Below, piece by piece: positions 40,821 to 42,358 of a stretch of DNA of 42,358 nt. The stretch lies in the sequence record PV357170.1. One strand, 5' to 3'. Both the position numbers and the translations under genes were made by a program. Position 1 is the stretch's first letter. The number at the start of each line of letters is the position of its first letter. The stretch is from a phage. Below the pieces are notes generated by a model. That model was not told the origin of the DNA. It did no database searches and saw nothing but the letters and a program-made list of their open reading frames with translations.

Positions 40821-42098
40821 TTAAATCCTCCGTCTGCGTTGGTTGTAGCGCAGGATATAAGAGATATCCAGCACGTTCAGCTCCTGGGAGCCCTTGGTAT
40901 ACAAAGTGATTTCCGTAGTATCCGCGTTAGTGCGGCACGGCACCGTGATGGTAGCCAAGTCCATACGCAAGGTCTGCCCCAACGTCAGCTCCTTGGAGTT
41001 CATCAAGATACCTGTGAGTTCTCCACTCCAGTCAACATCCCGGGGCGTATCCGTTACATGCACATCAAAGTGCCCGGAGTTACGTACTGCTACATCCAGA
41101 CGCAACAAACGCACGTGCCCGCTACCAACTAACTTATCATTCTGATCCCGAAGTACTGGGGTAGTCAGAGTGAATGCGCTATTGTACCTGCGACCCAGGA
41201 TATACTGCCCATCAGGAACACCACGTACGACTCTGAGCTGATTTGTACCGGCAATATCCTGTAACCCTACTTCGGTAGGTCCCATAGGATTGTTGGCTGG
41301 GTACGTGAGGATTAGGTCCTCTTTGTACGTATCCGCCCAACCCGCTGGGCGCAATACTGCGGGCACTGTTAACACTCCGGCGCTTACAGTAACTTGCGTC
41401 TGCAAGTCCGAGTACGCATCTGTATACTCACTGCCGAGGTTGTACCCCTCGCGTGGGTCCATAGACAAAATCAGAAGTTTATTGCCCGGGCTTGGCCCTT
41501 GCAGGTACAGGAACACTTCATCTTCAAGTGCCTGCACGCTCAGAATATTATACGGGAACGTCCATTGGTGCCAGGCTGATTGCACCTTACCACCATCCTG
41601 TCCACCCCACATGAACTCATATACCAGCAGACTCTTGCGCTGTCCGGACATACGCACAAACGCCATATTAGTGACACTGGAGTTTTGCATCTGCAGCACC
41701 CTCCCATGGATATACCGAGGGAGGTGCACAGTCGCATCCTGCGTAGTATATTGTGAGGCAGTATACGGGGATGGGATAAGCTCCAGAATACCCGCGTAGC
41801 TGCTGTTGCGCTTGTTCGGGTAAATCACAGTCTGCCCAGCCATTACTGGCGTTACTCGGCTGTCACATTCGTAGGTGCTAGTGATGCTAATACTGGCGTT
41901 AGTTGGAGTAAGCACTACTGACCCAGGCACTACAGCCTGCATGCTATTTGCAAACAGAACCAAGTCTCGGTTGAATTGTATAGCTGTACGGTACACGGAA
42001 TCCTGAGCAGATGCCGAGCTAATGCTGATACGGTCTGTATCCAGCAGAGAGGTTACTGTAGAGCGATAGAATCGCTGATACAGCCCAGATGCTGACAT
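40821..42098 (-). CDS. tail tubular protein B, C-terminal segment (after an in-frame stop)
   Basis: Same-frame ORF resumes after TAA at 42159-42161; first ATG at 42098 (track start is a TTG at 42128); internal block QSAWHQWTFPYNILSVQA resembles the recalled T7 gp12 block QQSWSHWDFGENVQVLA. Confidence 0.6.
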   Translation of the reverse strand: MSASGLYQRFYRSTVTSLLDTDRISISSASAQDSVYRTAIQFNRDLVLFANSMQAVVPGSVVLTPTNASISITSTYECDSRVTPVMAGQTVIYPNKRNSSYAGILELIPSPYTASQYTTQDATVHLPRYIHGRVLQMQNSSVTNMAFVRMSGQRKSLLVYEFMWGGQDGGKVQSAWHQWTFPYNILSVQALEDEVFLYLQGPSPGNKLLILSMDPREGYNLGSEYTDAYSDLQTQVTVSAGVLTVPAVLRPAGWADTYKEDLILTYPANNPMGPTEVGLQDIAGTNQLRVVRGVPDGQYILGRRYNSAFTLTTPVLRDQNDKLVGSGHVRLLRLDVAVRNSGHFDVHVTDTPRDVDWSGELTGILMNSKELTLGQTLRMDLATITVPCRTNADTTEITLYTKGSQELNVLDISYILRYNQRRRRI

Positions 42099-42161
42099 GT
42101 CTACTACACTAACACTGAGCAGGCCCAACCGGCCCTGGAATTCTGCTGTACCTGTACTTTA

Positions 42162-42358
42162 GCCATTCTCAAGAACCCACGGTTCCTGGTGGTTTTCGTC
42201 GTTCCCAGCACGACGCCCCTCCCATTCACTAGCAATGATGTTATCATCCGATGCCAGTTCCCGGGGCATGTTAGTAATTTTTGAGATGCTACCGTAGGCC
42301 CCAACCTCTGACCAGGTGCGGGAATTATAGTCGAACTGATACCACGCTGTCTCAGCTG
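42162..42358 (-). CDS. tail tubular protein B, N-terminal segment (5' end lies outside the window)
   Basis: Frame open from the window edge to TAA at 42159-42161; hand translation ...AETAWYQFDYNSRTWSEVGAYGSISKITNMPRELASDDNIIASEWEGRRAGNDENHQEPWVLENG. Confidence 0.5.

Follow-up and report, generated by a model that had tools for sequence, protein, structure and literature searches.

In this study, we found that the nozzle (tail tubular protein B) gene at one end of a 42,358-nt phage contig (PV357170.1; this whole stretch of DNA is referred to below as the window) is broken by an in-frame TAA codon, and that this codon belongs to a group of about 19 abnormal substitutions crowded into 140 nt beside an assembly break. 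Given this setting, the stop is most likely an error and not biology. More specifically, the TAA is probably a sequencing or assembly error, with one or more poor reads built into a thinly covered contig end, and the real phage almost certainly encodes an uninterrupted nozzle protein of 792 aa. A preliminary description of this DNA had left three options for the stop, namely a sequencing or assembly error, a nonsense allele from a mixed or defective population, and, as the least likely, programmed readthrough. The dense patch of substitutions beside the contig end makes it possible to separate these options, and, together with the contig-end context, it favours the one that had been listed first.

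On the minus strand, one frame is open from position 42356 for 65 codons, up to the TAA at 42161-42159, and the same frame continues past this codon as a 435-aa ORF with its natural TAA end at 40821, so that our reading of the frame agrees with the one given previously. The other two frames are closed. In the numbering of the nozzle protein, the part upstream of the stop (42162..42356) corresponds to codons 282-346, the TAA (42159..42161) replaces the codon of Tyr347, and the downstream part (40821..42158) comprises codons 348-792 together with the natural TAA stop. The window as written thus contains no intact ORF of about 790 aa, since TAA stands at codon 347 and only codons 282-792 are present, codons 1-281 lying beyond the contig end. 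The codon replaced by TAA is highly conserved: it is TAC in 22 of the 23 related loci and TAT in the other one, and the corresponding column of the protein alignment (n = 117 homologous proteins) contains Tyr in 114 cases and Phe in three. The view that a single clean nonsense codon interrupts a complete gene is right in part. A stop is indeed there, yet it is accompanied by the other members of a patch of ~19 substitutions, and both gp11 and the first 281 codons of the nozzle gene are absent. A 66-aa ORF in another minus-strand frame (42104-42304) also overlaps the patch; no homology supports it, and it has most likely arisen by chance.

Profile matches run in order on both sides of the TAA, which indicates that the two pieces adjoin each other within a single nozzle (tail tubular B) protein. 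The upstream 65-aa piece matches PHROG 457 at positions 281-350 (E = 4e-11) and Pfam PF25675 (Phage_nozzle) at positions 281-341, the latter with 26.4 bits when taken alone, just below the cut-off of 27. The downstream piece matches PHROG 457 at positions 358-793 (E = 1e-136) and PF25675 at positions 353-794 (328 bits against the cut-off of 27; E = 1.5e-97). Nozzle chains in the PDB are matched at E values from 7e-125 down to 3e-16, and solved nozzle structures, including T7 gp12 (6r21) and the Drulisvirus-type "nozzle gp13" (23sh), align right across the stop. Thus, the collinearity with the Autographiviridae nozzle (T7 gp12; PF25675; PHROG 457; structures 6r21, 8es4, and 23sh) supports the earlier suggestion, made from a resemblance of both sides to gp12, that a single gene has been interrupted. 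At the DNA level, the alignment to the single gene of the relatives is ungapped across 1538 nt, the identity to the 792-aa nozzle gene of E. coli and Klebsiella drulisviruses is 90-95%, and, as in these phages, a gp14-like internal virion protein gene lies directly downstream. The locus is thus homologous to the T7 gp12 / PF25675 nozzle gene, although it is not an intact member as written. It differs from the nozzle family in that its frame is broken at Tyr347 and the 40 codons around the stop carry 13 replacements foreign to the family, and from its drulisvirus relatives in that the contig has neither codons 1-281 nor the upstream gp11.

The window is a contig from a Drulisvirus-like phage (Autographiviridae, Slopekvirinae). 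Its genes are encoded on the minus strand, and it is ~90-94% identical to phages of E. coli, Klebsiella, and Shigella (ZH5, AV102, Minorna, KPV811, and SFN6B). In these relatives the capsid gene is followed by a 198-nt gene, a terminator, gp11 (561 nt), and a single nozzle gene of 2379 nt (792 aa). All 23 related loci compared here, which represent 18 distinct genomes or metagenomic contigs, have one uninterrupted nozzle gene, 792 aa long in most of them. Relatives with two separate genes at this point, which the preliminary description had named as evidence against an interrupted gene, were looked for and found at none of these 23 loci. Look-ups with the capsid and scaffold proteins led to relatives whose gp12 is 77-95% identical and which all have Tyr at the site of the stop, and no relative above ~95% identity was found.

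Compared with the records of its relatives, the window is rotated and runs through the junction of the physical ends of the phage genome. Its last position, 42358, lies 841 nt into the nozzle gene (it aligns from position 3001 of loci in which the gene begins at 2160), with gp11 and the 5' end of gp12 beyond the contig end. Approximately 1453 nt of Minorna (15791-17243), comprising gp11 and nozzle codons 1-281, have no counterpart in the window, and this ~1.45 kb is present in every relative. At the other contig end (1..46, minus strand), the terminator hairpin that follows the 198-nt gene is succeeded by 13 T, and position 1 falls inside this poly-T tail, whereas the relatives have the same hairpin and 8-16 T and then go on into gp11. 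The contig boundary reflects a break in the assembly and does not mark the end of a genome. We also considered a circular genome that has truly lost this segment; it is not supported, as the two contig ends show no overlap and one of them lies in a poly-T of variable length.

The region between gp11 and gp12 is itself not uniform among these phages. In KPV811 (L010, 16354-16945) and in the metagenomic contigs L023 and L018, the nozzle gene is called shorter (758 or 750 aa), and extra unannotated DNA lies between gp11 and gp12. In L018, an HNH endonuclease gene is located just upstream of gp11. These observations imply that the gp11-gp12 junction varies in this phage group, and such variation may contribute to assembly breaks in mixed samples.

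Three other regions of the window also depart from some or all of the close relatives. The first ~75 codons (15750-15974) of the 779-aa DNA polymerase gene find no alignment in four close relatives, and many private substitutions, mostly synonymous, occur in the neighbouring 200 nt. An essential replication gene thus seems to contain a mosaic (recombination) junction. The intergenic segment that separates the exonuclease gene from the upstream 126-aa gene (9905-10064) is hypervariable relative to the relatives, with ~35 private substitutions in 160 nt, and may be a promoter or regulatory region with quick turnover. The internal core (gp16-like) protein (33220-37482) is present in a long form of 1420 aa, as in ZH5 and some metagenomic relatives, the latter showing faint acetyltransferase-domain matches, while Minorna, AV102, and KPV811 have a 1232-aa form.

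The stop codon is embedded in a read-sized patch of clustered substitutions private to the window (42090..42230, minus strand), which begins 128 nt from the contig end. Relative to four to five close relatives, 19 private substitutions fall within these ~140 nt, and the rate of private substitutions is 12.6% in the patch as compared with 1.9% window-wide. When only substitutions private against all 23 related loci are counted, 15 lie in a 155-nt stretch covering the patch and four in the other 1263 nt of the gene, and two are found in the 120 nt nearest the contig end. In the 128 nt between the patch and the contig end, private changes are synonymous only, and the remainder of the nozzle gene, including 40821..42158 outside the patch, is well conserved, its few private substitutions being mostly synonymous transitions. 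Public sequences match the patch at 85.5% identity at best, as against ~93% for the whole gene, and these matches come from the same phages. No indels occur in the patch, where the close relatives align without gaps.

The substitutions in the patch also differ in kind from those elsewhere. Of 19 changes, 15 are transversions and four are transitions, and 13 of the 19 are of the A<->C or G<->T type, whereas 71% of the private substitutions in the rest of the window (n = 640) are transitions. Both the transition/transversion split (Fisher p = 1.3e-5) and the share of the A<->C/G<->T class (p = 1.5e-6) set the patch apart from this background. Furthermore, the changes disregard the conservation of the protein. 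Thirteen of the 40 codons in the patch are changed, and every one of the new residues (among the residues of the patch are S324, R330, H337, W341, and V342) is absent from its column in all 117 homologues (55-96% identity). The affected columns include the invariant R324, L330, N337, F342, I351, A353, and G363 and the nearly invariant V359 and I348, in addition to Y347, which becomes the stop. Only two other patches in the window are rich in transversions. One (9905-10064) is intergenic, and the other (15550-15750) lies in the DNA polymerase gene at the mosaic edge described above, where the changes are mostly at third positions and synonymous. The nozzle patch is thus unique among the coding regions of the window.

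These properties are in line with what is known of errors in short-read sequencing. In Illumina data, substitutions dominate over indels (PMC4381044), and in the tails of MiSeq reads 66-85% of the errors at A are to C, 58-61% of those at C are to A, and 40-45% of those at G are to T (Schirmer et al. 2015, PMC4381044). The A<->C/G<->T bias of the patch (13/19) agrees with this read-tail bias, and the lack of indels is as expected for Illumina-type but not for 454-type errors (PMC3141275, PMC4381044). It has also been reported that runs of consecutive Illumina miscalls reduce coverage, give rise to false SNPs, and leave gaps in assemblies (Nakamura et al. 2011, PMC3141275), and the patch resembles such runs (PMC3141275, PMC4381044) in being read-sized, free of indels, dominated by A<->C/G<->T changes, and adjacent to an assembly break. 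It differs from lagging-phase miscalls (PMC3141275) in that the expected sign, a miscall that repeats the preceding base, is weak, with eight cases observed against 5.0 expected (11 against 8.3 when the previous one or two bases are allowed). Since this enrichment is slight, we do not claim dephasing in particular as the mechanism.

In the scenario that we favour, the assembly of this linear contig broke in the gp11-gp12 region, and over the last ~270 nt before the break coverage would probably have been so thin that the consensus came from one poor read, or from a few reads of one poor template. The miscalls would then have been written into the contig as ~19 substitutions across 140 nt, and one of them would have turned the TAC of the conserved Tyr347 into TAA. 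Both the thin coverage at 42090-42358 and read error as the cause are inferred. A counterpoint to this scenario is the normal-looking sequence on both sides of the patch. Because the flanks are clean, a bad read tail at the very tip of the contig would require either a second, good read or a read quality that falls towards 42090. Many assemblers discard k-mers that are seen only once, and the erroneous sequence may thus have occurred at least twice, which points to a damaged or mis-amplified template rather than to a pure base-calling error.

Alternatively, the patch could be real DNA. A simple nonsense allele from a mixed population, as considered in the preliminary description, would be a single change and does not account for a dense patch of ~19 substitutions. 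A real allele would rather have to be a locally hypermutated, non-functional nozzle allele in a defective genome of the sampled population, either kept by complementation from co-infecting wild type or captured as a dead molecule, and it could have come from a tract of error-prone repair or synthesis, or from oxidative damage of the 8-oxoG type that became fixed when a single template was amplified. The position of the patch between normal flanks and its acceptance by the assembler are consistent with this reading, and so is the fact that 13 of the 19 changes are G:C>T:A or A:T>C:G, the two classes that are produced by 8-oxoguanine and known from mutY/mutM and mutT spectra. The absence of gp11 and of the gp12 5' end could in principle also be a real deletion. 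Nevertheless, we consider a real defective allele unlikely. An allele that inactivates an essential virion protein would not be expected to become frequent enough to form the consensus, and under relaxed selection changes should be found all along the gene, whereas the other 1263 nt are under normal constraint. In addition, the contig shows neither the overlap nor the junction of a closed deleted genome, its homopolymer end is typical of an assembly break, and no independent sighting was made in the collections searched. The more specific joint claim of a genuine 140-bp transversion-dominated (8-oxoG-type) hypermutation tract in the nozzle gene, possibly accompanied by a 1.45-kb deletion of gp11 and the gp12 5' end, and representing either a complementation-maintained defective genome or the trace of some novel targeted process, mutagenic or anti-phage, is in our view quite improbable. 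There is even less reason to regard the patch as a recombination tract from a divergent nozzle gene absent from databases, in which the stop arose afterwards by one mutation or error. Mosaicism is frequent among these phages, as illustrated by the DNA polymerase 5' end and by tail genes that differ between relatives, and the odd residues R330 and G359 happen to match the solved T7-like nozzle 7y1c. A natural donor, however, would respect invariant columns, and most of the 13 changes are at invariant or near-invariant ones, and none of the 13 new residues occurs in the 117 homologues, whose identity goes down to 55%. Natural divergence in the window is transition-rich and mostly synonymous, the opposite of what is seen in the patch, and no database match to the patch exceeds that of the same close relatives (85.5%). 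Taken together, such a tract appears very unlikely.

A functional stop, whether through programmed readthrough, suppression, or bypassing, or in a truly split gene with co-assembling polypeptides, is the least credible of the explanations, and the comparative sequence data have effectively refuted it already. Its attraction is that the frame continues past the TAA and that the protein is essential; for bypassing, there is also a GGC right before the stop and an in-frame GGC 30 nt downstream, superficially like take-off and landing codons. Yet a stop or split at this place is found in none of the 23 related loci and in none of the 117 homologous proteins, and TAA is the ordinary end of 22 of the 40 long ORFs in the window. 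The window yielded no tRNA gene and hence no suppressor, and we agree with the preliminary description in ranking readthrough as least likely. Even if readthrough did occur, 12 substitutions at conserved positions of the core would remain in the product. Bypassing from GGC to GGC would delete the near-invariant YITGIAAFQG motif, and the same GGY and GGC codons are present in all intact relatives. As to a split product, the candidate restart codons (42098..42128, minus strand) are TTG 42128, which was itself made from a conserved CTG (Leu) by one of the patch substitutions, and ATG 42098, which is the conserved internal Met368. As had been noted before, neither is preceded by a Shine-Dalgarno motif, in contrast to 24 of the 27 other genes in the window. 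A split gene with an independent downstream cistron was therefore rejected, there being no restart codon with a ribosome-binding site and the TTG arising from the patch. A short dense substitution tract in a phage tail-associated gene is also reminiscent of the variable regions of diversity-generating retroelements (DGR), in which phage tail genes undergo targeted hypermutation. Unlike these, the window has no template repeat, the longest second copy of any part of the patch being 11 nt; the changes are not restricted to adenine, as the changed reference bases are a mixture of C, T, A, and G; they hit a conserved core segment and include a stop; and the gene content of the window is syntenic with that of drulisvirus relatives, in which no reverse transcriptase is annotated. 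With TAA ending 22 of 40 ORFs, and with no tRNA, no template repeat, and no relative carrying the stop, both recoding and DGR-type diversification can be rejected.

Searches for the nonsense allele elsewhere were negative throughout. It was not found in 50,697 phage records or in E. coli genomes or plasmids by BLAST, in IMG/VR by a degenerate pattern scan, in JGI metagenome contigs or GTDB genomes by exact 31-mers, or in a collection of 5.8 billion proteins, and an exact-protein look-up of the 435-aa, 425-aa, 195-aa, and 65-aa products of the window returned no record. A protein cluster that might have passed for an independent truncated nozzle allele (P0039; 425 aa, 18 members) was traced to adapter contamination at a contig start and was rejected as a nonsense allele. 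The contig concerned (L012, Logan SRR33038171) starts 75 nt upstream of the ORF. Its first 19 nt (L012:1-19) are the Nextera mosaic-end adapter AGATGTGTATAAGAGACAG, which occupies the position of the Tyr347 codon, and wild-type sequence follows the adapter through the rest of the patch region. With the adapter at the start of the contig, the gene caller begins at the internal Met368, and this gives rise to the spurious 425-aa cluster.

In summary, the locus shows no defining feature of programmed recoding, of a split gene, or of a DGR target. The importance of the stop lies mainly in quality control, as naive annotation of this contig would list the gene as a truncated "tail protein" of 425 or 435 aa or as a pseudogene, or would lead to recoding being claimed for an essential gene of the phage. 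For in-frame stops in metagenomic or draft phage contigs, it is reasonable to ask as a rule whether the stop is isolated or part of a private, transversion-rich, conservation-violating cluster, how far it lies from the contig end, and whether it is common to relatives. If the patch were true, a structural gene of a phage would have been hypermutated locally, which is unusual, although nothing here requires such a reading. Under the explanation that we favour, a sequencing or assembly error, the stop would not be a real feature of the phage and would imply nothing new for phage biology, and the gene is best treated as an intact 792-aa nozzle gene until it is resequenced.
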